DNA of 39,437 nt from a virus (taxonomy: Duplodnaviria > Heunggongvirae > Uroviricota > Caudoviricetes). The position numbers and the translations under genes are program-made. This document shows positions 3,010 through 39,437 of the stretch, piece after piece. Positions within the stretch are counted from its first letter, which is position 1. Every line of letters starts with the position of its first letter. Below the pieces are notes generated by a model. The model was not told the origin of the DNA. It searched no databases and worked only from the letters and a program-made list of their open reading frames with translations. The stretch is from IMG/VR virus record IMGVR_UViG_2687453623_000006; one strand, given 5' to 3'.

Positions 3010-3229
3010 TCTGAATATCCCCCCAACTGATATGAATATTACGGGCAGCAATGACAGGGTCGTTATTCCACCATGCACCTGACATGTATTTTTCAACCTG
3101 TTCGCGTCCGGCAATAACACCAATTGTGATCCCCGGCCTGACGTTCTTAAAAAAGGCGCGGGCAAAAAGGTATCTGGCAGATATTCGGCAGGCTTTTAAT
3201 TTCCGGCTTTTACCTGATAGCGTAATCAT
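2999..3229 (-). CDS. hypothetical protein (76 aa)
   Basis: ORF packed between the DUF2786-like gene and the small membrane ORF in the early operon; no recognisable motif. Confidence 0.3.
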   Translation of the reverse strand: MITLSGKSRKLKACRISARYLFARAFFKNVRPGITIGVIAGREQVEKYMSGAWWNNDPVIAARNIHISWGDIQNDG

Positions 3230-4493: not shown

Positions 4494-4684
4494 TGCGCGT
4501 CCTCCCTGTCAGGGCGGGAGAATTCCATGACGGGCACGTCCGCCGAAAAATGCTGGCTGCAGTACGGGCAGACCAGGGTGACACGTACTGCAGGTATGTG
4601 ATACTTACCGGACATCACGGCGATGGCGCTGTGAAAACGCAGGGCTGTTATATCCCTCTCGCACTGAATACATTTAAATATCAT
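4490..4684 (-). CDS. small zinc-ribbon-like protein (64 aa)
   Basis: Two Cys pairs, CIQC and CPYC, spaced about 33 residues apart; GAGGAG upstream of the start. Confidence 0.4.
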   Translation of the reverse strand: MIFKCIQCERDITALRFHSAIAVMSGKYHIPAVRVTLVCPYCSQHFSADVPVMEFSRPDREDAQ

Positions 4685-4781
4685 AATTTAATTCTCCTCT
4701 GTTTCCGGCGTGCAGAAGCCCACGGCGCTGACGCCGGAATAAAAAAGAAAATGTTTTTATTAAATAATTAACGTGGTGTGT

Positions 4782-5611: not shown

Positions 5612-6778
5612 TTAAACCCCTTTGACAACGTCAGCGTTGACCTGTGGAACCCCGATTTCAGCGGCCAGATTCATGGCGGCTATCACCAGGTTACTGACGG
5701 CCAGCGGATACAGCAGGCTGACCATATTTTTACGATGACTTCCCGGATTGCTCAGGCGGGCACGTATGGCATCCACTGCGCTGGCGTCCATAATGTCCGT
5801 CAGTTGTTTACCGGCCCGTTGCAGTTTGAACGTCAGAAATTCTTCAAGGTTATTGTCCAGAGGCAGAAGTTCGACCACCTCACAACGCTGAACGACTTCA
5901 CGGACTTCCATATTGCGTTCAGACAGTTTTGTCGCCAGTTCCGGCTGGCCAATCAGCACGATGGACAGCAGTTTTTTGAAACCGGACTCCAGCTCAAAAA
6001 AGCGTTTGAGGTGTTTCAGTGTCGGAATGGGCAGACTGTGGGCCTCCTCAATCACCAAAACGTGGCTGAACCCCGCCTGGCTGCTGTCTTTCAGGACGCG
6101 ATGCAACTGGCGAAAGCGGGCGTCCTGACTGCGTCTGATGCTTTCCAGTGGTGCGATGGTACTGATAATGGCTTCGGCAATCGCTGCTGCCTTCAGGGTT
6201 TTCCCTTTCACATCGTTGTCTTCCATAGCGATGATGTATGGCTCGATAACAATTACCGGCGCATTCTCGCGGTTGATACGTTCAGTCAGGTCGCGGCGCA
6301 GCGTGGATTTACCCGCACCGGACTCACCGATGACGGCCATAAACCCACCATGACGGGCTGTCTGGTACAACGCCTCACGCACGTAGCGAATGTCCGGGGT
6401 GGTGAACACATCATCAGAACCCTGCATGGCTTCATCGGCGAACGGGTCACGGAAAAGACCAAACGCTTTTTTGGTTGCTGGAAATAACACCTGTTTTTTG
6501 AGTAACATATTCTCTTCCTCACTGAGGCTCGTTTTATCTGTGGTACCCGCTGTACGGGGCGTGGCTGCGCCCTGTACAGCATCAAAACTCTTCGTTGTAT
6601 CAATCCCCTGAGTTTCCAGCCAGGACGCAAGACGCCGGCGCACTTCTCCGGGGCTGGTGCGGGGCCACGCGTTATGATTCACAATCTGGGCCAGCGTGGC
6701 CTCAGAAACATCGACAGCTCTCGCCACCACCGCCTGTGGGATACGGGCCTCTTTCAGTTGCTGCTTCAGTACCAGCAT
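5612..6778 (-). CDS. transposition ATPase B (AAA+ / TniB-like)
   Basis: Walker A GESGAGKST, Walker B-like HVLVIEEAH; preferred ATG at 6778 with GAGGAGG RBS 11 bp after transposase stop (the track ORF extends to a GTG at 6817). Confidence 0.75.
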   Translation of the reverse strand: MLVLKQQLKEARIPQAVVARAVDVSEATLAQIVNHNAWPRTSPGEVRRRLASWLETQGIDTTKSFDAVQGAATPRTAGTTDKTSLSEEENMLLKKQVLFPATKKAFGLFRDPFADEAMQGSDDVFTTPDIRYVREALYQTARHGGFMAVIGESGAGKSTLRRDLTERINRENAPVIVIEPYIIAMEDNDVKGKTLKAAAIAEAIISTIAPLESIRRSQDARFRQLHRVLKDSSQAGFSHVLVIEEAHSLPIPTLKHLKRFFELESGFKKLLSIVLIGQPELATKLSERNMEVREVVQRCEVVELLPLDNNLEEFLTFKLQRAGKQLTDIMDASAVDAIRARLSNPGSHRKNMVSLLYPLAVSNLVIAAMNLAAEIGVPQVNADVVKGV

Positions 6779-6788
6779 GTTTTCCTCC

Positions 6789-8558
6789 TCAGTTGCCGTT
6801 AACAATGCTGATAACACTGCTGCGTGCCGGCGTGGTCAGCGTGGCCATGACTTCATCCAGTGCAGCTTCCGGTACGCCGTCCGGGTACTGTGCCGTTAAC
6901 TGGCGGTAATGTTCCGGCGTCCAGGTAAGGCCGTCGGCGCTGAACTTATCGCGCAGGGCTTTCGCGGCCTCCACATGAGTCATGGGACGTTGTTCAGTGC
7001 GCGGCCCGCGTACGTCAGAGGCCTGACCACGCTTCGGCATATAGGCCGGAAGTGTGGTGTCGTCGATATGTTTATACGGGTCAAGCCGCCCGCCGAACGG
7101 CAGCGCCTTCGCCTTGCGTGCGGCAGCTGCATCTGCGGCGTTGTCTGTACCGGTGACCAGCGCTTCGGTTTCTTTTGCCGCCATCTGCGCCGGGGTTTCC
7201 GGCAGGGCTTTGTAACTTTCGCCAAATACCGCCGCGCCTTCAGCAAAGCCAAACTCGTTCTTTCTGACCTCTTCGACCAGGAAGAACGTCTCGTGGCCGT
7301 CCTCACCGGTCAGAACCACCTGTGCCACATCGCTGCGCCACGGGTTACGGGTAATCATCAGTTTTTCACCAACCAGTACGCCCGGTACCGTTGATACGTC
7401 AAATTCAGTGCCCCGGAACGAGACACGAAGTTTTGGCGTGACTTTGCGGAGTTCTGGTGCCGCCACAGCCAGTTCACGACATACCTCAACGGAAGGCGCT
7501 TTTTTCAGCTGCTCAGCAGTAATCTTCAGCCAGATATCCGTGCGGGTTTTACCGTGGCGGCTGTGAACAGCCGTGGCGTTAAAGTGGCTGCGCCATTTCG
7601 CGGCCAGCGCGTTGAGTTCTTCCAGACTGTGAACCGGCCGGAACTTCAGACCCGGCTCCAGCTTGCGTTCGATAATGTCCCGCGCCTTTTCCACCTGTCC
7701 GGTGGCGCGGGCGTTATGCGGCTTGTGCGCTATCAGGTCGATGCCCAGTGAGCGGCACATGTTTTTCGTCATACCCGCGGTGTTTGCCGAGCCGGGGTCG
7801 AGATAGAGTATTTTCGGCACACCGTGCAGCACGTCTGCGCCGCCACGCTCCTGCATGGCGTTGATAAGCACAGAACACAGGTTCTCACCTGATTCCGCGC
7901 CCGTCACATACTCAACGTAAATCCAGCCGCTGGCATGGTCGGTAATCTCGTAACTCCACACGCGGTCACTGGCGATACGGGCAAGGTTAGCGGGCTTGTT
8001 CTTGTAGAACTTCGCGCTGTCCATCACCTGCAGCCCTTTATGTCCATTGCTCAGGTAGTAAAGCGTGCAGAGTGAGGCGTCAATCTGCCAGACATGATTG
8101 GGATGCAGACTGGCCACTTCGGTATGCGGCGCAGGGGCATCCAGTTGTTCCGGGTGCAGGCCATAGTTACGCAGGGCTCGGCTGATGGCATCTTCGGACA
8201 ACGGGAAAAACTCACCGGTGGTTTCATCTGTTCTGCCTGCGGATATAAAGCCGTTAGCCCGCAGGGTTTCCACTGCATCCGCGATGGAATAGAGACGCTT
8301 ACCGTTCTTGCGGGTGGCCTCACGCAGTGTGGCAGATATCAGCGCGGCTTCGTCGCGGGTCAGGGCGCTGCGCCCGGCATCGGCGCGTTTTTTGCGTTTA
8401 TCAGTCACAGATACCTCCTTCAGCCTGCGCAGCAGAGTGGCGCGGGACATGCCAAGTTCAGCACAGGCAGCGTCGTATACTGCGCCGCGTTTACCATGCC
8501 CCGCGTCACGTGCCGCGCGGGCGACATAAACCAGTCGTTCAGTCAGGGCAGCATTCAT
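6789..8558 (-). CDS. DDE transposase (Mu A functional equivalent, integrase-core type)
   Basis: 589 aa; N-terminal DNA-binding region followed by catalytic-core-like segments HVWQIDAS and ILYLDPGSANT; immediately upstream of the AAA+ B gene. Confidence 0.8.
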   Translation of the reverse strand: MNAALTERLVYVARAARDAGHGKRGAVYDAACAELGMSRATLLRRLKEVSVTDKRKKRADAGRSALTRDEAALISATLREATRKNGKRLYSIADAVETLRANGFISAGRTDETTGEFFPLSEDAISRALRNYGLHPEQLDAPAPHTEVASLHPNHVWQIDASLCTLYYLSNGHKGLQVMDSAKFYKNKPANLARIASDRVWSYEITDHASGWIYVEYVTGAESGENLCSVLINAMQERGGADVLHGVPKILYLDPGSANTAGMTKNMCRSLGIDLIAHKPHNARATGQVEKARDIIERKLEPGLKFRPVHSLEELNALAAKWRSHFNATAVHSRHGKTRTDIWLKITAEQLKKAPSVEVCRELAVAAPELRKVTPKLRVSFRGTEFDVSTVPGVLVGEKLMITRNPWRSDVAQVVLTGEDGHETFFLVEEVRKNEFGFAEGAAVFGESYKALPETPAQMAAKETEALVTGTDNAADAAAARKAKALPFGGRLDPYKHIDDTTLPAYMPKRGQASDVRGPRTEQRPMTHVEAAKALRDKFSADGLTWTPEHYRQLTAQYPDGVPEAALDEVMATLTTPARSSVISIVNGN

Positions 8559-10557: not shown

Positions 10558-10590
10558 ACCGGAAAGCATTGTGCTTTCCGGTTTTGTTTC
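10558..10590 (+). terminator. Rho-independent terminator downstream of the repressor
   Basis: Perfect 11-bp stem ACCGGAAAGCA/TGCTTTCCGGT with 3-nt loop followed by TTTTGTTTC. Confidence 0.5.
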
Positions 10591-11353
10591 AGAAGTTGCA
10601 GATTACCAGTTCACGGCGCGGCGTAGATTTCCCCGCCAGACTGTAGTTGATGTTCACTGTCTGTATGTTCAGTCCAGTGAACACCTCGCGCATCTGTGGG
10701 ATATCGTTCACCGAAATTATCATTTTTCCTCTGATGCACCGGGCCAGCTCTGCCAGCCGCGAGTAGTTCCCTTCAGGAAAATCCACACCATAGCCTTCCG
10801 TACCCAGGTACGGTGGGTCGCAGTAGAACAGTGTGTGCGGACGATCATAACGCTCAATGCACTGTTGCCAGTCCATGTGTTCTATGACTGTTCTGGAAAG
10901 CCGCAGGTGTGCTGCTGACAGTTCTTCTTCAATACGCAGCAGGTTGAAGCGTGGCGGGGATGTGGTGGAGGTACCGAAGCTGTGCTCTGCCACCTTGCCG
11001 CCAAACGCCTGCTTCTGAAGGTAGTAGAACCGTGCCGCACGCTGGATATCCGTCAGTGTTTCTTCCGGGGTGATCTGCAGCCATTTGTAGATCTGACGGC
11101 TGACCAGCGCCCATTTGAACTGGCGGACAAATTCTTCCAGGTGATGCTTTACCACCCGGTACAGATTCACCAGTTCACCGTTGATATCATTGATGACTTC
11201 GATCTTGCCGGGTGTCTTAAGAAAATAGAGCGCTGCTGCCCCACAAAACGGCTCCACATAACATTCATGCGCCGGAAACAGCGGCAGGATGTGTTTTGCC
11301 AGGCGACGTTTGCCACCAATCCATGGAACGATGGGTAATGTCTTCATTTTCAT
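10589..11353 (-). CDS. dam: Dam-family DNA N6-adenine methyltransferase (orphan)
   Basis: 254 aa; N-terminal WIGGKRRL, SAM-binding motif EPFCGAAALYF, catalytic motif DPPY; no adjacent restriction endonuclease. Confidence 0.8.
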   Translation of the reverse strand: MKMKTLPIVPWIGGKRRLAKHILPLFPAHECYVEPFCGAAALYFLKTPGKIEVINDINGELVNLYRVVKHHLEEFVRQFKWALVSRQIYKWLQITPEETLTDIQRAARFYYLQKQAFGGKVAEHSFGTSTTSPPRFNLLRIEEELSAAHLRLSRTVIEHMDWQQCIERYDRPHTLFYCDPPYLGTEGYGVDFPEGNYSRLAELARCIRGKMIISVNDIPQMREVFTGLNIQTVNINYSLAGKSTPRRELVICNF

Positions 11354-15922: not shown

Positions 15923-17442
15923 CGGAGCTGCCGCCGCACATTCCTGACACCGCGAGTTATAAGGCCCCTCCCGTTCTGTTGCCCTACCAGCAGCGCTGGG
16001 TGGCAGATGCCTCTCCGCTTAAGGTGATAGAAAAGAGCCGTCGTACCGGTATTACATGGGCTGAGGCATCCGATAACGTACTGACCGCCGCCTCTTCTGC
16101 GCCAGCAGGCGGGATGAATGTGTATTACATCGCTTATAACCAGGACATGACCGTCGAATACATTCAGGCGTGTGCGATGTGGGCACGGGCATTCAACTAT
16201 GCGGCCAGTGAAATTGAAGAAGGATTCTGGGAAGAGGACGACGACGACAAACACATCAGGACTTACACCATCAAATTTCCTGACTCCGGCTTTCGTATTG
16301 TTGCGCTCTCCAGCCGCCCGTCTAACCTGCGTGGCCGTCAGGGTATTATTGTTATCGACGAAGCGGCGTTCCATGAGCAACTGGACGAACTGCTGAAAGC
16401 GGCGCTGGCGATGCTTATCTGGGGGGGAAAGGTACGCGTTATCTCCACCCATGACGGTGACGACAATCCGTTCAATACGCTTATCGGGGATATCCGTGCC
16501 GGACGTCAGGGAGGCAGCGTACATCGCATCACTTTCCGGGAAGCCGTATCTGAGGGGCTGTTCCGGCGCGTTTGTCTGCGCACCGGGAAGGAATGGTCGG
16601 AGGCATCCGAGCAGGCCTGGATGGCGTCGGTGTACAAATTCTACGGTGCCGGTGCATCCGAAGAGCTTGACTGTATTCCGGCCAACGGTGGCGGTGCCTG
16701 GCTGTCCCGAGCCCTGATAGAGTCCCGCATGTCCGCTGATACGCCGGTATTGCGTCTGACCTGCAAGGAAGGTTATGAACTGCTGTCTGATGAGGTTCGC
16801 TTCCGCGAGACGCAGGACTGGCTTGATGAGCATCTGAAACCATTACTGGAGGCGCTCCCCGCTGGTGCCCGCTCTTTTCTGGGGCGTGACTTTGGCCGTA
16901 GCGGGGATTTGTCGGTGGACTACCCGTTGTTGCAGGAGAAGAACCTGATACGACGCGTGCCATTCGTACTGGAGTTGCGTAACGTGCCGTTCAGGCAGCA
17001 GGAGCAAATCACCTGGTATCTGATGGATGGCCTGCCCGGTCTGCTGGGTGCAGCGTTTGATGCCCGTGGTAATGGTGCCTATCTGGCTGAATACGCCATG
17101 CAGCGCTACGGCTCCGGCCGGGTTCAGCAGGTGATGCCAACCGAAGGCTGGTACCGGGAGCATATGCCTCCGGTCAAAGCTGCACTGGAAGACGGTAACC
17201 TGGTGGACTTACCAAAGGATGAAGACACACTGGATGACCTGCGGGCCGTTCAGGTGGTGAACGGTGTCCCCCGCGTGCCGGAGCAACGCTCAAAAGCAAA
17301 GGCTGATGGTGGTAAACGTCACGGGGATTCAGCCATCGCACTGGCGCTGGCGTATTTCGCCAGCCGTGAAATTAACAAAGGGCCGGTGAAGGCAAGCTCA
17401 CGCCGTCGTCGTCAGGCGGCCCGTATGCTGGAGGGATTCTGA
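15919..17442 (+). CDS. terminase large subunit (Mu gp28-like)
   Basis: 507 aa; ATPase Walker B-like GIIVIDEAAF; followed directly by the portal gene; start overlaps upstream stop. Confidence 0.8.
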   Translation: MTELPPHIPDTASYKAPPVLLPYQQRWVADASPLKVIEKSRRTGITWAEASDNVLTAASSAPAGGMNVYYIAYNQDMTVEYIQACAMWARAFNYAASEIEEGFWEEDDDDKHIRTYTIKFPDSGFRIVALSSRPSNLRGRQGIIVIDEAAFHEQLDELLKAALAMLIWGGKVRVISTHDGDDNPFNTLIGDIRAGRQGGSVHRITFREAVSEGLFRRVCLRTGKEWSEASEQAWMASVYKFYGAGASEELDCIPANGGGAWLSRALIESRMSADTPVLRLTCKEGYELLSDEVRFRETQDWLDEHLKPLLEALPAGARSFLGRDFGRSGDLSVDYPLLQEKNLIRRVPFVLELRNVPFRQQEQITWYLMDGLPGLLGAAFDARGNGAYLAEYAMQRYGSGRVQQVMPTEGWYREHMPPVKAALEDGNLVDLPKDEDTLDDLRAVQVVNGVPRVPEQRSKAKADGGKRHGDSAIALALAYFASREINKGPVKASSRRRRQAARMLEGF

Positions 17443-18938
17443 TGGCGAGGGGTATCTGGGTTTCACCCGATGAATTTGTTGCTTTTTCTGAGCCTCAGAA
17501 ATCACTGACCGCGCAGATTGCCTCCCGCAGCCGCGCGATCGACTTTTACGGACTGGGCATGTATCTGCCCAATCCTGATCCCATTCTCAAGGCTCAGGGA
17601 CGGGATATCCGTATCTACCGCGAACTGCGCACCGACCCGCTGGTCGGGGGCTGTATCCGCAGACGTAAAGCAGCGCTCAAATCACTGGAGCGTGGACTGG
17701 AGCGCGGTCACGCTTCTGCCCGGGTCTTCCGTTTCATCCGCGACATGCTCGACGATCTGGATCTGTCCCGCATCATCGGTGAGATGAGTGATGCCGTGCT
17801 CTACGGGTATCAGCCCTGTGAAATCATGTGGGGCCGTTCGGTCAGGGCGTGGGCAGTGACGGATATTGTCGGCAAACCGCCTGAGTGGTTTCAGTTTGAT
17901 ACGGACAACTGCCTGCGCTTCCGGGCGCGTGATGCGGGTGTGGAGGGTGAGCTGCTGTCACCGTCAAAATTCGTGGTGCCGGCACAGGATGCCTCGTATG
18001 ACAATCCTTACGGTTTCCCGGACCTGTCCATGTGCTTCTGGCCGGTCGCCTTCAAGAAAGGCGGGATGAAATTCTGGCTCCGCTTTGCCGAAAAGTTTGG
18101 CTCCCCGTGGGTGATCGGTAAGCACCCGAGGGGTGCAAATGATGCAGAGATTGAAAAACTGCTGGACTCCATGGAGCAGATGGTGGAGGACGCGGTGGCC
18201 GCCATCCCCGATGACAGCAGCATCGAACTCAAAGCCGCGGATGGTAAGGCGGACAGCAGCGAGGTATTCCGCGAGCTGATCACACTGTCACGCAGTGAGA
18301 TCTCCATTGCATTACTTGGTCAGAATCAGACCACGGAAGCGAACAGTAACAAGGCCTCTGCACAGGCCGGGCTGGAGGTAACGGCTGATATCCGCGATGC
18401 GGATGCGGACATCATTCAGGCAGCAGTGAATCAGGTTATCAGAACGGTGGTCACCCTGAACTTCGGCGATGTGCCGTGTCCGGTCTGGGCCATGTGGGAA
18501 CAGGAGGCCATTGATGACACCCGTGCCACCCGCGACGAAAAACTCACCCGGGCGGGTCTGCGTCTGACCCCGCAGTACTTTAAGCGTGAGTACCAGCTGC
18601 AGGACGGCGATATTGACGAGACACCACCGTCGGAACGCCAGAATAACATGCTGCCGCTGTCATTTGCCGAGGCGATTGATGCCGATATTCAGGCTCAGCA
18701 GCAGCTTGACGACGCGCTGGACATTCTGATGAACGGAGGTGTGTTAAATGGCACGCTGGAACCCGTCCTGGCACCTCTGTTTAAGCGGGTCGAAAACGGG
18801 GTTAACCCGTCTGAGCTGCTGGGCGAACTGGCGGAGCTCTACCCTCAGATGAACACGGACGATCTGCAGGAACGGCTGGCCCGCATTCTCTTTGTGGCAA
18901 ATATCCGGGGACGTCTGCATGAGCGTGACAACGGCTGA
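17442..18938 (+). CDS. portal protein (Mu gp29-like)
   Basis: 498 aa; position between terminase and Mu F-like gene; ATG overlaps terminase stop (TGATG). Confidence 0.8.
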   Translation: MARGIWVSPDEFVAFSEPQKSLTAQIASRSRAIDFYGLGMYLPNPDPILKAQGRDIRIYRELRTDPLVGGCIRRRKAALKSLERGLERGHASARVFRFIRDMLDDLDLSRIIGEMSDAVLYGYQPCEIMWGRSVRAWAVTDIVGKPPEWFQFDTDNCLRFRARDAGVEGELLSPSKFVVPAQDASYDNPYGFPDLSMCFWPVAFKKGGMKFWLRFAEKFGSPWVIGKHPRGANDAEIEKLLDSMEQMVEDAVAAIPDDSSIELKAADGKADSSEVFRELITLSRSEISIALLGQNQTTEANSNKASAQAGLEVTADIRDADADIIQAAVNQVIRTVVTLNFGDVPCPVWAMWEQEAIDDTRATRDEKLTRAGLRLTPQYFKREYQLQDGDIDETPPSERQNNMLPLSFAEAIDADIQAQQQLDDALDILMNGGVLNGTLEPVLAPLFKRVENGVNPSELLGELAELYPQMNTDDLQERLARILFVANIRGRLHERDNG

Positions 18939-34380: not shown

Positions 34381-34951
34381 GCCATTACAACTCCCGCCAC
34401 CGCTTGAGGGTGATATCAGTCTCAGGACGCTGGGAAGACTGGCAGGGCGGCTGGATAACATCGACCTGAGCGTACTGATGGTCTTTCTCGTCGATATCGT
34501 CGACAGTTCTGCGCTGCCATGGCTGGGCGAGCAGTTCTCACTGTCTGGCGATGGCTGGGAGCTGGCGGAATCGGACGATGTTCGCCGCATGCTTATAAAA
34601 GCAGCCATCGAACTACACCGGTATAAAGGGACGCCGTGGTCAATCCGGGAAGTTATCCGCCGTTTTGGCTTTGGTGAAGTGGATCTGATTGAAGGCACAG
34701 GTCGTCTCAGTTACGACGGCAATCGCAGCTATAACGGACTGTTTGTTCATGGAGATGCAGCCGCCTGGGCGGTTTATCGCGTTATTCTGAAACAGCCCAT
34801 TACTAACGATCAGGCCGCGATGCTGCGTCAGACGCTCGCTGCATTTGCACCGGCCCGCTGCCATCTGGCCAGCCTGGAGTATCAGTCTGTGGCCATTCGC
34901 TATAACAATACCGCCATCCATGATGGCAGTTATAACCACGGGAGCAGTTGA
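34373..34951 (+). CDS. tail protein I-like (P2 gpI family)
   Basis: Track ORF from GTG 34361; preferred ATG 34373 overlapping the J stop; precedes tail fibre. Confidence 0.6.
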   Translation: MTEPLQLPPPLEGDISLRTLGRLAGRLDNIDLSVLMVFLVDIVDSSALPWLGEQFSLSGDGWELAESDDVRRMLIKAAIELHRYKGTPWSIREVIRRFGFGEVDLIEGTGRLSYDGNRSYNGLFVHGDAAAWAVYRVILKQPITNDQAAMLRQTLAAFAPARCHLASLEYQSVAIRYNNTAIHDGSYNHGSS

Positions 34952-37146
34952 TTATGGGAAACCTGAATGAAACAGAAAAGTGGGAAGAAAAAATCTATCA
35001 ACTGGAGACATCAGATCCGGTTCTGGGTGGTGCTGACGGGATATCAAATCGAGCCCCCCGGCAACTGGCAAACAGGACGAAATGGCTGAAGAAAAAAACG
35101 GAGGAAGCCGCACAGTCACTGGCTGAACACGTACGTTCCCGTAACCACCCGGACGCGACACTGACAGCTAAGGGGTTCACCCAACTGAGCAGTGCCACCA
35201 ACAGCACCTCTGAAACGCTGGCCGCCACACCAAAAGCCGTCAAGGCTGCATACGACCTTGCAGCCGGCAAGGCACCCGTCAGTCACACTCACCCGTGGAG
35301 TCAGATAACGGGAGTGCCTGCTGCCTCGCTGACGGCAAAAGGCACCGTACAGCTGAGCAGTGCCACGGACAGTCAATCAGAAACTGAGGCTGCCACGCCG
35401 AAGGCTGTGAAAATCGCGTATGATCTGGCCCGGGGAAAATACACAGCCCAGGATGCAACAACGACCCGTAAAGGGATCGTACAACTGAGCAGTGCCACCA
35501 ACAGCACCTCTGAAACGCTGGCCGCCACACCAAAGGCCGTCAAGGCTGCATATGACCTAGCTGCCGGCAAGGCCCCCGTCAGCCACACTCACCCGTGGAG
35601 TCAGATAACGGGAGTGCCTGCTGCCTCGCTGACGGCAAAAGGCACCGTACAACTGAGCAGCGCCACGGACAGTCAATCAGAAACTGAGGCTGCCACGCCG
35701 AAGGCTGTGAAAATCGCGTATGATCTGGCCCGGGGAAAATACACAGCCCAGGATGCAACAACGACCCGTAAAGGGATCGTACAACTGAGCAGTGCCACCA
35801 ACAGCACCTCTGAAACGCTGGCCGCCACACCAAAGGCCGTCAAGGCTGCATATGACCTGGCTGCCGGCAAGGCCCCCGTCAGCCACACTCACCCGTGGAG
35901 TCAGATAACGGGAGTGCCTGCTGCCTCGCTGACGGCAAAAGGCACCGTACAACTGAGCAGCGCCACGGACAGTCAATCAGAAACTGAGGCTGCCACGCCG
36001 AAGGCTGTGAAAATCGCGTATGATCTGGCCCGGGGAAAATACACAGCCCAGGATGCAACAACGACCCGTAAAGGGATCGTACAACTGAGCAGTGCCACCA
36101 ACAGCACCTCTGAAACGCTGGCCGCCACACCAAAGGCCGTCAAGGCTGCATATGACCTGGCTGCCGGCAAGGCCCCCGTCAGCCACACTCACCCGTGGAG
36201 TCAGATAACGGGAGTGCCTGCTGCCTCGCTGACGGCAAAAGGCACCGTACAACTGAGCAGCGCCACGGACAGTCAATCAGAAACTGAGGCTGCCACGCCG
36301 AAGGCGGTCAAGGCTGCATACGACCTTGCAGCCGGCAAGGCCCCCGTCAGCCACACTCACCCGTGGAGTCAGATAACGGGAGTGCCTGCTGCCTCGCTGA
36401 CGGCAAAAGGCACCATACAATTGAGCAGTGCCATCAACAGCACGTCTGAAATACTGGCCGCCACACCGAAAGCGGTCAAGGCTGCATACGATCTGGCAAA
36501 CGGAAAACAACCGGCAGATGCCACGCTCACTGCTCTGGCAGGACTTGCCACTGCAGCAGATCGGTTGCCTTATTTTACCGGAGCAGACCGCGCAGCGCTG
36601 GCAACCCTTACAGCTATTGGTCGCGCTATTATCGCTAAGGGCAGTATAAAAGATGTCCTCAATTACCTTGGTTTGGGGGAAGGCTCTGCATTGCCTGTTG
36701 GTGTGCCTGTTCCGTGGCCCACCGCCACACCGCCAGCAGGCTGGTTACAGTGCAACGGAGCTACGTTCACCAAAGAACAATATCCTGTTCTGGCCAGAGT
36801 CTACCCGACCCTCCGTCTTCCCGATTTACGCGGTGAGTTTATCCGTGGATGGGACGACGGGCGCAAGATTGACGAGGGGCGTAAGTTGCTTTCATGGCAG
36901 AAAGGTACACTGGTCGGCGGTCATGACGATAACGATTCTTCGCTGGATATCTCGTACATGAGTAACGGAAATAATATTGACTATGGCGGCGATAAGGTGT
37001 TTGCGGGGAATTACCGTAGCGATTATTTGTGGTACGCAATTCTGGGTGGAACAAACAGTCGCGCAAAAGCCGAATTAAACGGAGCATTCTTTAACATAAC
37101 CCGCCCCCGCAATATCGCGTTTAACTATATCGTGAGGGCGGCGTGA
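34948..37146 (+). CDS. tail fibre protein (constant N-terminus, repeat-rich shaft, exchangeable C-terminal cassette)
   Basis: 732 aa; repeated LSSAT(N/D)S(T/Q)SET(L/E)AATPKAVK(A/I)AYDLA motifs; C-terminal region homologous to two inverted downstream cassettes. Confidence 0.8.
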   Translation: MIMGNLNETEKWEEKIYQLETSDPVLGGADGISNRAPRQLANRTKWLKKKTEEAAQSLAEHVRSRNHPDATLTAKGFTQLSSATNSTSETLAATPKAVKAAYDLAAGKAPVSHTHPWSQITGVPAASLTAKGTVQLSSATDSQSETEAATPKAVKIAYDLARGKYTAQDATTTRKGIVQLSSATNSTSETLAATPKAVKAAYDLAAGKAPVSHTHPWSQITGVPAASLTAKGTVQLSSATDSQSETEAATPKAVKIAYDLARGKYTAQDATTTRKGIVQLSSATNSTSETLAATPKAVKAAYDLAAGKAPVSHTHPWSQITGVPAASLTAKGTVQLSSATDSQSETEAATPKAVKIAYDLARGKYTAQDATTTRKGIVQLSSATNSTSETLAATPKAVKAAYDLAAGKAPVSHTHPWSQITGVPAASLTAKGTVQLSSATDSQSETEAATPKAVKAAYDLAAGKAPVSHTHPWSQITGVPAASLTAKGTIQLSSAINSTSEILAATPKAVKAAYDLANGKQPADATLTALAGLATAADRLPYFTGADRAALATLTAIGRAIIAKGSIKDVLNYLGLGEGSALPVGVPVPWPTATPPAGWLQCNGATFTKEQYPVLARVYPTLRLPDLRGEFIRGWDDGRKIDEGRKLLSWQKGTLVGGHDDNDSSLDISYMSNGNNIDYGGDKVFAGNYRSDYLWYAILGGTNSRAKAELNGAFFNITRPRNIAFNYIVRAA
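35150..36520 (+). repeat. in-frame tandem array of near-identical 300-bp (100-aa) units in the tail-fibre shaft, about 4.5 copies
   Basis: CTGAGCAGTGCCACCAACAGCACCTCTGAAACGCTGGCC recurs at 35185, 35485, 35785 and 36085; identical antisense ORFs in the track at 300-bp offsets. Confidence 0.85.
36661..36867 (+). repeat. inversion-site homology block A inside the tail-fibre gene (gix-like crossover site at its 5' edge)
   Basis: About 200 bp nearly identical in inverted orientation to 38086..38290 and 38599..38811; 5' edge ACCTTGGTTTGGGGG resembles the Gin/Hin crossover core (AAACC-NN-GGTTT). Confidence 0.7.
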
Positions 37147-37152
37147 TACCGT

Positions 37153-37767
37153 TCAGCTGGCAAGTGCCAGTGGCGCTTCCGGCCAGCTGATTTCAGGTGC
37201 CGTGCTGATATCCAGTGCGTTCAGCTCGTCGATATAATCCAGCACGGCGTTCAGTTTTGCCGTTTCTTCTGGTGTCAGACTGCGACCAGCACGCAGTTTG
37301 AGGTTGATAAGATCGACGGACGCCATCGCCTGTTTCACCCGTTGCTGGCGTTGCTGTCTGGCAACCTCCAGTTCTGCGGCTCGCTGCCGTTCAGTATCGG
37401 TTACCCACGCCTCACCGTTCCAGGTATCCCATGGCGTGGCCGGCTGTTTTGTGGTGGTGTCCGCCGGGTAATCACCCGGTTGGGTAATCAGAACGGGGTT
37501 ACCGTTCTCCGTGCTGTATACCGTCTCGCCGCGGTGATCAGGCACATGCTCCCACCCGTTCAGCGTGGCAGTCCGGCAAACCACGTAACCCGAAATTGCC
37601 TCCGGCGGTGCATCGGCGCACGAATGTGCCGGAGTACCCACCCCAAGGGCGAGATACTCCACAGAGGATGAGGTGTATTCCCGGGTTTCCTCGTCATAGT
37701 GATATACAGTGATCTCGCCCGCTACAGTGGCGATACCGTTTTCATCCAGAACTGCAGTGTTACTCAT
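37153..37767 (-). CDS. tail fibre assembly chaperone (Mu U-like), in currently silent orientation
   Basis: 204 aa; directly downstream of the minus-strand cassette at 37767..38249 with overlapping stop/start. Confidence 0.7.
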   Translation of the reverse strand: MSNTAVLDENGIATVAGEITVYHYDEETREYTSSSVEYLALGVGTPAHSCADAPPEAISGYVVCRTATLNGWEHVPDHRGETVYSTENGNPVLITQPGDYPADTTTKQPATPWDTWNGEAWVTDTERQRAAELEVARQQRQQRVKQAMASVDLINLKLRAGRSLTPEETAKLNAVLDYIDELNALDISTAPEISWPEAPLALAS

Positions 37768-38249
37768 TAAACTGCCCTCACAATGTAATTAAGTGCAATG
37801 CTACGGGGTCTGACAGTGATACCCTTCGCATACCCGCTTCTGATAGAGGTCAGAATAGTAGCCTGCATACCATTGTCTGACATTGCCACGACAGGATCGC
37901 TGAATGTTGTCCCGTCCGGCATTTTAAAGCTGCCCTCACGAAGGTCTGTAATGGAATCTTCATTGTTGAATCCCATGCCGACTATCCCCGAGGTTCCCGT
38001 AGTGTCCTGGTTATAATAATCCAGCATTGCTGTTCTTAACAGCGTTGCCCCTTGTGCGGACAGCAACTTACGTCCTGTATCAACTTTGCGCCCGTCGTCC
38101 CATCCACGGATAAACTCACCGCGTAAATCGGGAAGACGGAGGGTCGGGTAGACTCTGGCCAGAACAGGATATTGTTCTTTTGTAAAGGCGCGCCCGTCGC
38201 ACTTTAACCAGCCTGCTGGCGGTGTGGCGGTGGGAAACGGAACAGGCAC
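37767..38249 (-). CDS. alternative tail-fibre C-terminal cassette B (currently unfused)
   Basis: N-terminal 60 aa PVPFPTATPPAGWLKCDGRAFTKEQYPVLARVYPTLRLPDLRGEFIRGWDDGRKVD nearly identical to the C-terminal region of the expressed fibre, then diverges. Confidence 0.7.
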   Translation of the reverse strand: MPVPFPTATPPAGWLKCDGRAFTKEQYPVLARVYPTLRLPDLRGEFIRGWDDGRKVDTGRKLLSAQGATLLRTAMLDYYNQDTTGTSGIVGMGFNNEDSITDLREGSFKMPDGTTFSDPVVAMSDNGMQATILTSIRSGYAKGITVRPRSIALNYIVRAV

Positions 38250-38290
38250 ACCAACGGGTAGCGCCGAGCCTTCTCCTAAACCAACGTTTT
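38086..38290 (-). repeat. inversion-site homology block B
   Basis: Inverted copy of block A; gix-like core AAAACGTTGGTTTAGG on the minus strand at about 38262..38290. Confidence 0.65.
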
Positions 38291-38793
38291 TATGCGGCCC
38301 TTACGATGTAATTAAACGCAACATTGCGGGGGCGCATTGATATCCATGCCCCGGTAAAATTATCCTCCGCTGTCCTTTGAATACCCGTTATAGAGTTATC
38401 TGCTGATGCAGGAACATAATCGCTATTATTTCCTGCTTTAGGATTAGCTGGGTTTCCAACGGTTATAACAGAATCAGCAGTAGCAAAAGCGATACCTACT
38501 TTGACATTAGTATTCAGATCGTAACCGTAATAATCCTGCAAAGCTGTACGAATAAATGTTGCAGCCTGACCACTTAGCAATGAACGCCCCGTATCAACTT
38601 TGCGCCCGTCGTCCCATCCACGGATAAACTCACCGCGCAAATCGGGAAGACGGAGGGTCGGGTAGACTCTGGCCAGAACAGGATATTGTTCTTTTGTAAA
38701 GGCGCGCCCGTCGCACTTTAACCAGCCTGCTGGCGGTGTGGCGGTGGGCCATGGAACAGGCACACCAACAGGCAGTGCAGAGCCTTCCCCCAA
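38290..38793 (-). CDS. alternative tail-fibre C-terminal cassette C (currently unfused)
   Basis: N-terminus GEGSALPVGVPVPWPTATPPAGWLKCDGRAFTKEQYPVLARVYPTLRLPDLRGEFIRGWDDGRKVD matches the expressed fibre, then a distinct C-terminal domain. Confidence 0.7.
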   Translation of the reverse strand: MGEGSALPVGVPVPWPTATPPAGWLKCDGRAFTKEQYPVLARVYPTLRLPDLRGEFIRGWDDGRKVDTGRSLLSGQAATFIRTALQDYYGYDLNTNVKVGIAFATADSVITVGNPANPKAGNNSDYVPASADNSITGIQRTAEDNFTGAWISMRPRNVAFNYIVRAA

Positions 38794-38811
38794 ACCAACG
38801 TTTATCTCTCA
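38599..38811 (-). repeat. inversion-site homology block C
   Basis: Inverted copy of block A; gix-like core GATAAACGTTGGTTTGGGGG on the minus strand at about 38786..38811. Confidence 0.65.
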
Positions 38812-38864
38812 AATCCTCCCCACATTATCTCAGTACTTTAACCACTCAAAAGGGAGTATTTTTA

Positions 38865-39437
38865 ATGCTGATTGGCTACATACGTGTGTCAACAAATGAC
38901 CAAAACACAGATTTGCAACGCAATGCATTAATGTGCGCAGGATGTGAACAGATTTTTGAGGACAAAATGAGCGGAACCAAGTCGGAACGACCAGGCCTGA
39001 AACGCGCTTTAAAGTGCCTTAAAAGAGGGGATACATTGGTGGTCTGGAAGCTGGATCGGTTGGGTAGAAGAATGAAACACCTCATTGCTCTCACAGAAGA
39101 GCTACGCGCAAAAGGTGTCAATTTTCGCAGTCTGACGGATTCAATCGATACCAGCACTCCGATGGGAAGGTTCTTTTTTCATATGATGGGTGCACTGGCA
39201 GAAATGGAGCGTGAACTGATAGTTGAGCGCACGCTGGCAGGACTGGCTGCTGCGCGAGCACAAGGAAGAGTTGGAGGACGTCGCCCGAAACTGACGAAGG
39301 AGCAGCATGAGCAGATCGCAAGATTGCTCCAGAAAGGGTATGACAGAAAGCGGCTGGCAATTATCTATGATATTGGACTGTCAACGATCTACCGCTACCA
39401 CCCTGTTGGGACTGTCATAACGCAACCTGAAATGTAA
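38865..39437 (+). CDS. gin: Gin/Hin/Cin-family serine DNA invertase
   Basis: 190 aa from ATG 38865 (AAGGGAG RBS); MLIGYIRVSTNDQNTDLQRNAL with catalytic Ser, C-terminal HTH; near-identical in pattern to Mu Gin as recalled; adjacent to inverted-repeat-flanked fibre cassettes. Confidence 0.85.
   Translation: MLIGYIRVSTNDQNTDLQRNALMCAGCEQIFEDKMSGTKSERPGLKRALKCLKRGDTLVVWKLDRLGRRMKHLIALTEELRAKGVNFRSLTDSIDTSTPMGRFFFHMMGALAEMERELIVERTLAGLAAARAQGRVGGRRPKLTKEQHEQIARLLQKGYDRKRLAIIYDIGLSTIYRYHPVGTVITQPEM

Follow-up and report, generated by a model that had tools for sequence, protein, structure and literature searches.

Organisation of the tail-fibre locus

The DNA analysed, referred to here as the window, is a stretch of 39,437 nucleotides from a tailed phage (IMG/VR record IMGVR_UViG_2687453623_000006). 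Its right end is occupied by the following features.

34948–36668, plus strand: constant part (Sc) of the tail-fibre gene, with Phage_fiber_2 repeats, outside the invertible DNA
36656–36681, plus strand: crossover site A, gix-like, TCCTCAATTACC-TT-GGTTTGGGGGAA, core TT at 36668–36669
36669–37146, plus strand: cassette A, the tip joined to Sc in the window (state 1), identified from its open reading frame and a Pfam Collar match
36669–38283, no strand assigned: invertible segment s1, 1615 bp, holding cassette A (plus), tfa (minus) and cassette B (minus)
37153–37767, minus strand: tfa, the sole tail-fibre assembly (chaperone) gene (Pfam Caudo_TAP PF02413, E=3.5e-28; PGAP product name)
37767–38283, minus strand: cassette B, a silent tip without its own start, fused to Sc in state-2 genomes
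38271–38296, minus strand: crossover site B, plus-strand core AA at 38283–38284, reverse complement CGCATAAAAACG-TT-GGTTTAGGAGAA
38284–38797, no strand assigned: invertible segment s2, 514 bp, equal to cassette C and precisely missing from two-cassette variants
38290–38797, minus strand: cassette C, silent here and joined to Sc in genomes of states 3 and 4
38785–38810, minus strand: crossover site C, core AA at 38797–38798, reverse complement GAGAGATAAACG-TT-GGTTTGGGGGAA
38865–39437, plus strand: gin-like serine DNA invertase gene, 190 aa, catalytic Ser9 in a YIRVSTNDQ motif
38886–38949, plus strand: candidate recombinational enhancer inside gin, from two G-N13-C 15-mers and alignment with Mu gin

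The open reading frames run from 34948 to 37146 (plus) for the fibre, and from 37153 to 37767, 37767 to 38249 and 38290 to 38793 (all minus) for tfa, cassette B and cassette C. The frame of cassette B is open as far as site B at 38283, past the annotated end at 38249. Sc matches Pfam PF03406 in nine stretches (E=9e-169) and holds a 300-nt tandem array (35182–36305). The tip encoded by cassette A consists of a Collar domain, which matches T4 gp37 (2xgf), a variable part of about 67 amino acids and the conserved ending RPRNIAFNYIVRAA. All three tips are built in this way, with a Collar domain, about 67–80 variable residues and a conserved last 16 residues (RPRN-I/V-AFNYIVRA-A); the variable parts share only 24–35% identity with one another. 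The reading frames of A, B and C all run ...LGLGEGSALPVG... through the site, giving a constant 5' part and in-frame alternative 3' parts as in the Mu G segment, and fused Sc–tip fibres are annotated in genomes of states 2–4.

Each cassette is headed by a related block of sequence. The inverted repeat of A with C (36665–36890 against 38576–38801) covers 226 nt and is 90% complementary, that of A with B (36665–36893 against 38059–38287) covers 229 nt at 88%, and blocks B and C form a 276-nt direct repeat (38014–38289 and 38528–38803). Chance falls far short of explaining repeats of such length and identity. Block A is on the plus strand with B and C inverted, and each opens with a 26-bp gix-like site with a TT/AA core. 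The preliminary description of a block of about 200 bp recurring in inverted orientation at the cassette heads is thus borne out, as is the placing of a gix-like site at the head of each block. The cores are however not of the clean AAACC-NN-GGTTT type it gave, being imperfect palindromes such as TTACC-TT-GGTTT and AAACC-AA-CGTTT. The half-sites resemble those of Mu gix (TTCCTGTAAACC / TTATCCAAAACC), and the three sites have an identical core, with A inverted relative to B and C, as in Din-family systems. The recombination site is only the outermost 26 bp of each block; the remainder, some 200 bp, codes for the conserved Collar domain (Pfam PF07484) present in every tip. The stop codon of cassette C falls within site B.

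Directly to the right of the cassettes, where a Gin-like recombinase gene had been noted at the outset, lies an intact gene (38865–39437, plus strand) whose product is 77% identical to Mu Gin (139/181 residues). It carries the YIRVSTNDQ and DRLGR motifs, the Resolvase (Pfam, E=8e-51) and HTH_7 domains of Din-family recombinases, and matches the PDB entries for Gin (4m6f/3uj3) with E=2e-93. The distance from site C to the invertase start equals that of Mu gixR. The candidate enhancer begins 88 bp from the site C core and consists of two 15-mers (38886–38900 and 38935–38949) separated by a 34-bp spacer; against the equivalent place in Mu gin the alignment is free of indels, with 51 of 64 positions identical and 14 of 15 in each Fis-site-like 15-mer. 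This layout agrees with the described 65-bp enhancer, which has a Fis site at either end and lies about 100 bp from one crossover site (PMC3798978), and Fis binding is predicted from sequence similarity. The switch is predicted to depend on Fis and the enhancer.

Natural isomers and the mechanism of switching

The locus is very probably an enhancer-dependent inversion switch of the Gin/Din family, whose three crossover sites delimit two invertible segments that overlap. By analogy with Mu, the Gin homologue would bind the three 26-bp sites and assemble together with Fis on the enhancer within its own gene, cut at the common 2-bp core and rotate one pair of half-sites. Site A opposes B and C, so that recombination of A with B flips 1615 bp and of A with C 2129 bp; in the product of the latter B opposes C, making B×C inversion possible. 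The states are linked in a cycle, 1-2-4-3-1. State 1, that of the window, is Sc–A; state 2 is Sc–B followed by tfa; state 3 Sc–C, the remnant of B and tfa; and state 4 Sc–C, A and antisense tfa. Each sets one C-terminal tip in frame after the constant fibre body, giving three tips over four states.

The isomers were built in silico for exchange at the core dinucleotides, with 36400–39437 as the query region, and searched for in complete E. coli genomes. All four predicted isomers are present as single ungapped matches at 100% coverage and up to 99.9% identity. For state 1, 34 of the 40 matches listed are at full coverage, and for states 2, 3 and 4 this holds for 15 of the 15 matches listed. 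These whole-isomer counts are lower bounds only, since 83% of the query is common, on one strand, to states 1 and 4, and likewise to 2 and 3, so that these are cross-counted, and two-cassette variants also exceed 80% coverage. Segment s1 is found in both orientations, with exact junctions. Queries with the junctions themselves gave 80 records for Sc–A, 283 for Sc–B and 75 for Sc–C, numbers skewed by two-cassette variants and other prophages; with the former as a confounder, their use as switching frequencies was rejected.

The clearest cases come from close relatives. In strain GN04979 the prophage is present three times, each time in a different host gene, and the copies represent states 1, 2 and 3. 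Every copy departs from its predicted isomer at three SNPs, identical in all of them, which move with s1. The hybrid sites have exactly the expected make-up, outer-A/inner-B, outer-A/inner-C and so on, which places the exchange inside the 7 nt TTGGTTT. In an independent lineage, AVS0973 (state 1), AVS0750 (state 3) and p11A (state 4) show no differences over 3038 nt once un-inverted. Four isomers, a 7-nt interval and a lineage with no differences amount to inversion with exchange at the core, as in the Din family, and the limitation of exchange to 7 nt around the core marks the recombination as site-specific and not homologous. The locus is a real, active tail-fibre inversion switch that has been flipped repeatedly in nature; from the other genomes, switching probably continues in the window's own copy. 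The proposal that a Gin-like invertase joins site A to B or C is matched by natural isomers carrying exactly the predicted junctions. Three host-range states in place of the two of Mu had also been proposed: three tips on one constant fibre body are indeed found, but there are four DNA states, with tip C in two arrangements, because A×C inversion turns site B round and so makes B×C possible. Overlapping segments (1615 and 2129 bp) between three sites, together with the four isomers observed, make the locus a multiple-inversion module. The three tips may confer different host ranges.

Two other accounts of the rearrangements have to be weighed. Inverted repeats of 226–229 nt at 88–90% identity are long enough for some RecA-dependent homologous recombination, in which case the adjacent invertase would be irrelevant or dead, and in one lineage a stretch close to site B has taken on the A/C sequence by conversion, so that the blocks do exchange information. 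Yet in all eight loci checked the exchange point falls within one and the same 7 nt, at the block's outer edge, and none of the eight has a chimeric block despite about 25 discriminating positions along it; the invertase, with 77% identity to Gin, is intact; and a two-cassette variant lacks the 514-bp unit exactly at the cores. This account is therefore very improbable. Still less credible is an origin of the isomers in faulty assembly, or a locus frozen as a relic in which switching has ceased. Each assembly gives one consensus orientation and the fibre gene is annotated as frameshifted in some copies, but each isomer is represented by dozens of independent complete assemblies with base-perfect junctions, states differ within one chromosome and between near-identical copies in different strains, and every part of the locus is intact.

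The two-cassette locus just mentioned is L008. Precise variants of this kind hint that cassettes may come and go in units of 514 bp through site-specific excision and integration at the same sites.

One chaperone gene for three tips

A single Caudo_TAP gene accompanies three tips, which departs from the Mu-type arrangement of one chaperone per tip. Mu and two canonical two-cassette loci of E. coli E2348/69, a strain which also carries a three-cassette homologue of the present module, have two chaperone genes each. The single tfa is genuine, and unusual since canonical two-cassette loci have two. Its start and the stop of cassette B overlap (TAATG), and the gene is equipped with a GAGGG Shine-Dalgarno sequence of its own. 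The orientation of tfa is sense only in states 2 and 3, and antisense only when tip A is expressed in state 1 or tip C in state 4. In state 3, the A×C product, tfa lies on the same strand as tip C, about 0.5 kb downstream, with the Shine-Dalgarno sequence kept. The earlier statement that cassettes A and C have no assembly gene in cis therefore holds for tip A, and for tip C in state 4, but fails for tip C in state 3.

A consensus scan of the minus strand for a sigma-70-like promoter for tfa found none. A weak GATAAT upstream of site C, picked out by eye, was rejected for want of an acceptable -35 and of conservation in E2348/69. With the sole tfa lying antisense to the late operon in two of the four states (1 and 4), and no minus-strand promoter found, fibres may be made without the chaperone in half of the states. 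Relatives of these tips precede a tfa in the non-invertible phages HK97 and HK106. As a test of whether tip A needs a chaperone, non-invertible relatives were set aside, tblastn matches outside near-identical copies being only about 50% identical and mostly confined to the Collar domain.

How the three tips cope with this arrangement can be read in two ways. Tfa could be a generalist which reads the shared Collar domain, the last 16 residues or both, and which all three tips need; fibres of states 1 and 4 would then be poorly assembled unless Tfa came in trans from another prophage or copy. We consider this a serious possibility, a little short of an even chance. Between the window and E2348/69, Tfa is 59% identical over its full length while identity falls to only 14% in the variable parts of the tips next to tfa, and thus Tfa does not co-vary with the variable region; the parts it might read are better conserved, at 77–80% for the Collar domain and 56–94% for the last 16 residues. 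The tfa behind the HK97 and HK106 relatives fits the same reading, as do the several copies in different states often found within one genome, and a study of a Xenorhabdus tailocin considers the possibility that several fibre variants share one chaperone (PMC13280938). On the other hand, a general need for Tfa would make half of the states defective in a single lysogen, yet the one-tfa layout has survived the large divergence between the window and E2348/69, and the variable N-terminal domain of Mu Tfa is reported to bind its fibre specifically (PMC9608196).

Alternatively, the chaperone may be needed by tip B alone, through translational coupling, tips A and C folding without Tfa and being indifferent to its orientation, so that one tfa would suffice. 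The survival of the one-tfa architecture across divergent modules fits this reading. The start of tfa overlaps the stop of B and of no other tip, whilst A lies tail-to-tail with tfa at a 6-nt distance conserved in the window and E2348/69. Furthermore, a natural derivative (L016) retains only Sc–C and gin, with no tfa. It is however a single deletion derivative, canonical two-cassette loci retain one tfa per tip, and the conserved ends are common to all three tips. We give a need restricted to tip B the same weight as a generalist Tfa, a little short of an even chance.

A further proposal, which we think unlikely, is that the four DNA states correspond to four adsorption phenotypes rather than three, the presence of the chaperone being itself phase-variable. 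The sole tfa flips with s1, so that tip C would be accompanied by Tfa in state 3 but not in state 4, and tip A never. This could matter in adsorption because Mu Tfa remains on the mature fibre and aids receptor recognition (summarised in PMC9608196).

Distribution and significance

The element has matches in about 880 of 5426 complete E. coli genomes, ST131 included, often in several copies. Tail-fibre annotation consequently varies between assemblies merely through the state of the switch. Knowledge of the four isomers and of the exact crossover points avoids mis-annotation, as tail proteins labelled 'partial' or 'missing N-terminus' are silent cassettes, and also averts false calls of structural variation. 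In biological terms the switch would serve to hedge bets on host range, as known devices of its type do; the point of interest is how three tips cope with one orientation-dependent chaperone gene.

Comparison with known systems

The Mu G segment and Gin (AF083977) share with the window 26-bp sites with a 2-bp core, the logic of Sc/Sv fusion and a gin gene to the right of the segment; the right-hand site and in-gin enhancer of Mu occupy the same positions as site C and the candidate enhancer. In Mu, by contrast, there are two sites and two states, the repeats measure 34 bp, and each tip has a chaperone to itself (U or U'). The Mu tips, of about 335 amino acids, are unrelated in sequence to those of the window, and U and U' each share only 20% identity with the window Tfa.

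Min of plasmid p15B, Cin with the C segment of P1 and Pin with the P segment of e14 are likewise Din-family invertases acting on tail-fibre 3' cassettes. The P1-type plasmid p15B has six sites and hundreds of isomers, whilst P1 and e14 have two sites each, e14 with two tfa genes; the e14 crossover site is AAACCTTGGTTTGGGAGAAGG. Shufflons of the R64 type also use several overlapping invertible segments, exchanging the C-terminus of the adhesin-like PilV as the present locus does that of the fibre. They rely by contrast on the tyrosine recombinase Rci and 19-bp sfx sites, and are not known to involve a Fis enhancer or a phage fibre.

The preliminary description set three states against the two of Mu, a step beyond Mu that is not new. 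Judging from its title, the paper of Sandmeier et al. 1990 (cited in PMC5903667) already reported more than two crossover sites and overlapping segments for Min of p15B. The three-site, four-state design itself is not new, having been demonstrated experimentally in a P2-like prophage of E. coli O127:H6 E2348/69 (NC_011601.1, 1891695–1893703), where three homologous repeats give three alternative C-termini and where paired-end sequencing together with PCR revealed four coexisting variants (Goldberg et al. 2014, Genome Med 6:112, PMC4272514). That report makes no mention of the chaperone question. The E2348/69 invertase is 199 aa long against 190 aa in the window, its host element is P2-like whereas the prophage of the window is transposable, of Mu/BcepMu type, and has gin as its rightmost gene, and the variable parts of the tips are unrelated (13–28% identity).

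In other respects the two modules correspond closely. Both have a constant body, three Collar-type cassettes, one tfa between two of them (tail-to-tail or head-to-tail) and an invertase directly after. The three 215-bp repeats of E2348/69 begin ACCTTGGTTTGGGGGAAGGCTCTGCA, and its sites, …ATTACC-TT-GGTTTGGGGGAA and …AAAACG-TT-GGTTTGGGGGAA, are nearly equal to those of the window. The invertases are 80% identical and the Tfa proteins 59%, and inversions of 2008 and 1576 bp compare with 2129 and 1615 bp here. By these likenesses of sequence and layout, the locus is a further case of the known three-site tail-fibre switches, homologous to the module of E2348/69.

Organisation of the switch region

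The switch region (34948-39437) holds the tail-fibre gene, the assembly chaperone gene tfa, two silent ORFs and an invertase gene, gin:

34948-37146, + strand: tail-fibre gene, 732 aa; nine Phage_fiber_2 repeats and a Collar domain (Pfam)
37153-37767, - strand: tail-fibre assembly gene tfa; Caudo_TAP
37767-38249, - strand: cassette B ORF, promoterless; Collar domain at its start (Pfam)
38290-38793, - strand: cassette C ORF, promoterless; Collar domain at its start (Pfam)
38865 (ATG, the true start) to the final base of the window, + strand: invertase gene, 190 aa; Resolvase and HTH_7 (Pfam)

The repeat blocks which begin the three tip cassettes A, B and C had been proposed from the sequence, and a repeat finder bears them out: block A (36665-36890) is inverted relative to block C (38576-38801; 90% complementary) and block B (38059-38287; 88% complementary), with B and C direct repeats of one another. 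At the protein level the first 75 residues of the tips, the Collar domain, are 91-97% identical; identity falls to 24-35% over the next 67-80 residues, and the last 16 residues are alike again (RPRN(I/V)AFNYIVRA(A/V)). Because the Collar is shared at the protein level, the 200-bp block is conserved coding sequence and not the recombination signal as such.

A 26-bp imperfect palindrome sits at the outer edge of every block:

36656-36681, + strand: site A, TCCTCAATTACC-TT-GGTTTGGGGGAA
38271-38296, - strand: site B, reverse complement CGCATAAAAACG-TT-GGTTTAGGAGAA
38785-38810, - strand: site C, reverse complement GAGAGATAAACG-TT-GGTTTGGGGGAA

These crossover sites have the asymmetric core TT/AA in common, and site A points the opposite way to B and C. 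The frame ...LGLGEGSALPVG... is open, without stops, across each of the three, and cassette C has its stop codon within site B. The silent cassettes are annotated in various genomes as 'incomplete; missing N-terminus' pseudogenes, calls which are an annotation consequence of the switch.

Four states and their natural isomers

With three sites, exchange at the core dinucleotide would generate four possible arrangements of two invertible segments, s1 (36669-38283) and s2 (38284-38797).

Arrangements of the invertible segments
State 1: L s1 s2 R; the arrangement in this window
State 2: L -s1 s2 R; from A×B
State 3: L -s2 -s1 R; from A×C
State 4: L -s2 s1 R; from B×C in state 3, or A×C in state 2

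The four predicted isomers of 36400-39437 were built and searched for in 5426 complete E. coli genomes. All four were found there as single ungapped alignments covering the full 3038 nt, with identity reaching 99.9-100%; among the matches listed, coverage was full in 34 of 40 for state 1 and in 15 of 15 for each of states 2, 3 and 4. The observation in the preliminary description is confirmed; its count of three states gives way to four.

Strain GN04979 carries three prophage copies, in states 1, 2 and 3, each interrupting a different host gene. The same three SNPs relative to the predicted isomer occur in each, and these move with s1; state 4 is exemplified by strain KS21. The hybrid sites match the prediction exactly, those of state 2 being TCCTCAATTACC-TT-GGTTTAGGAGAA and TTCCCCCAAACC-AA-CGTTTTTATGCG. 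The base adjacent to the core distinguishes the outer half-sites, and inner B departs from inner A six bases in, which confines the exchange to 7 nt.

A second lineage is represented by three unrelated strains with differing insertion sites, in states 1, 3 and 4. Once the segments are turned back, these copies are identical at 3038/3038 positions, which rules out, as the source of the isomers, both assembly noise and homologous recombination distributed over the 226-nt repeats. The inversion mechanism is strongly supported.

Recombinase and candidate enhancer

The invertase is identical to Mu Gin at 139/181 positions (77%), carries the motifs YIRVSTNDQ (Ser9) and DRLGR, and has the Gin structures 4m6f and 3uj3 as its best solved relatives (E=2e-93). 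When site C and the 5' end of the gene are aligned with the right-hand site of Mu, gixR, and Mu gin, the sites and the start codons fall in the same alignment columns. Within gin, 38886-38949 matches Mu at 51/64 positions with no indels; the two G-N13-C 15-mers at its ends are each 14/15 identical to Mu, and the 34 bp between are less conserved. Din-family enhancers, as described in PMC3798978, are 65 bp long, with a Fis site at both ends, and lie ~100 bp away from one of the recombination sites. The layout of 38886-38949 is as described for these elements, making it a candidate enhancer on sequence grounds.

Derivatives and mobility of the module

Several loci from complete genomes carry altered versions of the module:

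NZ_CP145671.1, 479750-482673: two-cassette copy (L008)
NZ_CP029747.1, 3362627-3371292: two-cassette copy (L017)
NZ_CP091756.1, 3818884-3827540: one-tip derivative (L016), junction at locus positions 4651-4733
NZ_CP059332.1, 988734-992313: P2-like prophage with the same A/B/C cassettes at 93% identity (L009)

The two-cassette copies are versions of the same prophage, with both orientations represented. Missing from them is precisely the 514-bp unit s2 (cassette C), core to core, and their remaining site consists of inner B and outer C. Such copies either represent the ancestral form or arose by site-specific deletion between sites B and C, which are direct repeats. The one-tip derivative keeps only the constant fibre part joined to tip C, with gin directly after it. 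Nearly all of s1, including tfa, is gone; the deletion joins the two inverted repeat arms at points ~20-30 nt inward of sites B and C and leaves a short palindrome.

In three loci of one lineage (L012, L014 and L015), the first ~45 nt of block B beside site B are A/C-type sequence (s1 positions 1567-1609, equivalent to about 38235-38277 in the window), and the inner half-site at B reads GGTTTGGGGGAA in place of GGTTTAGGAGAA. This patch is the result of gene conversion between repeat blocks.

The presence of the same cassette set in the P2-like prophage indicates that the whole module moves between phage backbones. Its invertase (199 aa) is of the type found in E. coli O127:H6 strain E2348/69, which has a three-repeat module in a P2-like prophage (Goldberg et al. 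2014, PMC4272514). Its cassette B is degraded.

The host element and the fibre shaft

The element in the window is a transposable Mu/BcepMu-type prophage with a P2-type baseplate and tail:

5612-6817, - strand: AAA+ MuB-like ATPase
6789-8558, - strand: rve-type transposase
17442-18938: Mu-type portal

The window begins and ends exactly at gene boundaries, and the true transposon ends are therefore not included. The prophage ends ~35-80 bp past gin, the disrupted host gene differs in each genome, and up to three copies occur per chromosome (L004-L006, NZ_CP147551.1). The early/middle region also encodes a D12-class N6-adenine DNA methyltransferase (10589-11353, - strand; Pfam PF02086, E=6e-29).

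The fibre shaft (35148-36515) contains a 300-nt tandem array, substructured as 168/132 nt and present in 3.7 copies that are 98% identical, which specifies Phage_fiber_2 repeats. Prophages that are near-identical elsewhere differ in its copy number: fibre length is 732 aa in the window and 530 aa in strain EC11, and several genomes have an extra 336 nt. Two of the three GN04979 copies (L004 and L006; NZ_CP147551.1) have a fibre gene that is annotated as frameshifted.

A single chaperone gene

One tfa for three tips departs from the canonical pattern of one per tip, which is seen in Mu and in two ordinary two-cassette loci of E2348/69. The preliminary description was right that tfa is single, but its view that cassette C has none in cis holds for just one of the two states that express tip C: in state 3 tfa follows tip C on the sense strand, ~0.5 kb downstream, and has a GAGGG Shine-Dalgarno sequence of its own. 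States 1 and 4 are the only ones in which the gene is antisense, and no sigma-70-like promoter was detected on its strand.

It is quite possible, though short of probable, that one Tfa acts as a generalist for all tips. The Tfa proteins of the window and E2348/69 are 59% identical throughout, compared with 14% for the variable parts of the adjacent tips; conservation between the tips of the two modules is seen in the Collar (77-80% identity) and in the last 16 residues (56-94%). A comparable conclusion, of a common chaperone or none needed, was reached for Xenorhabdus tailocin fibres (PMC13280938). It is equally possible that tip B alone needs Tfa, as the start of tfa overlaps the stop of B and of no other tip. 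The one-tfa layout is moreover kept across the two diverged modules, as is the 6-nt tail-to-tail spacing between tfa and the cassette in the A position. Goldberg et al. (PMC4272514) do not discuss the chaperone.

Comparison with known systems

The supplement of Goldberg et al. (PMC4272514) gives the coordinates and repeat of the E2348/69 module. The repeat starts ACCTTGGTTTGGGGGAAGGCTCTGCACTGCC, which is nearly site A and its block in the window. The gene order there (fibre, cassette on the + strand, tfa on the - strand, cassette on the - strand, invertase) is that of state 4, the sites are near-identical to those of the window, and the invertases are 80% identical. According to a preprint on ST131 wound isolates, the fibre region is also rearranged in prophages labelled Entero_P88 and Burkho_phiE255, each of which has an invertase; an ST131 prophage record labelled Entero_P88 matches 38074-39437 of the window at 97.9%. 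Multi-site systems of the Gin family date back, according to a citation in PMC5903667, to Min of p15B. The switch in the window belongs to an already demonstrated kind.
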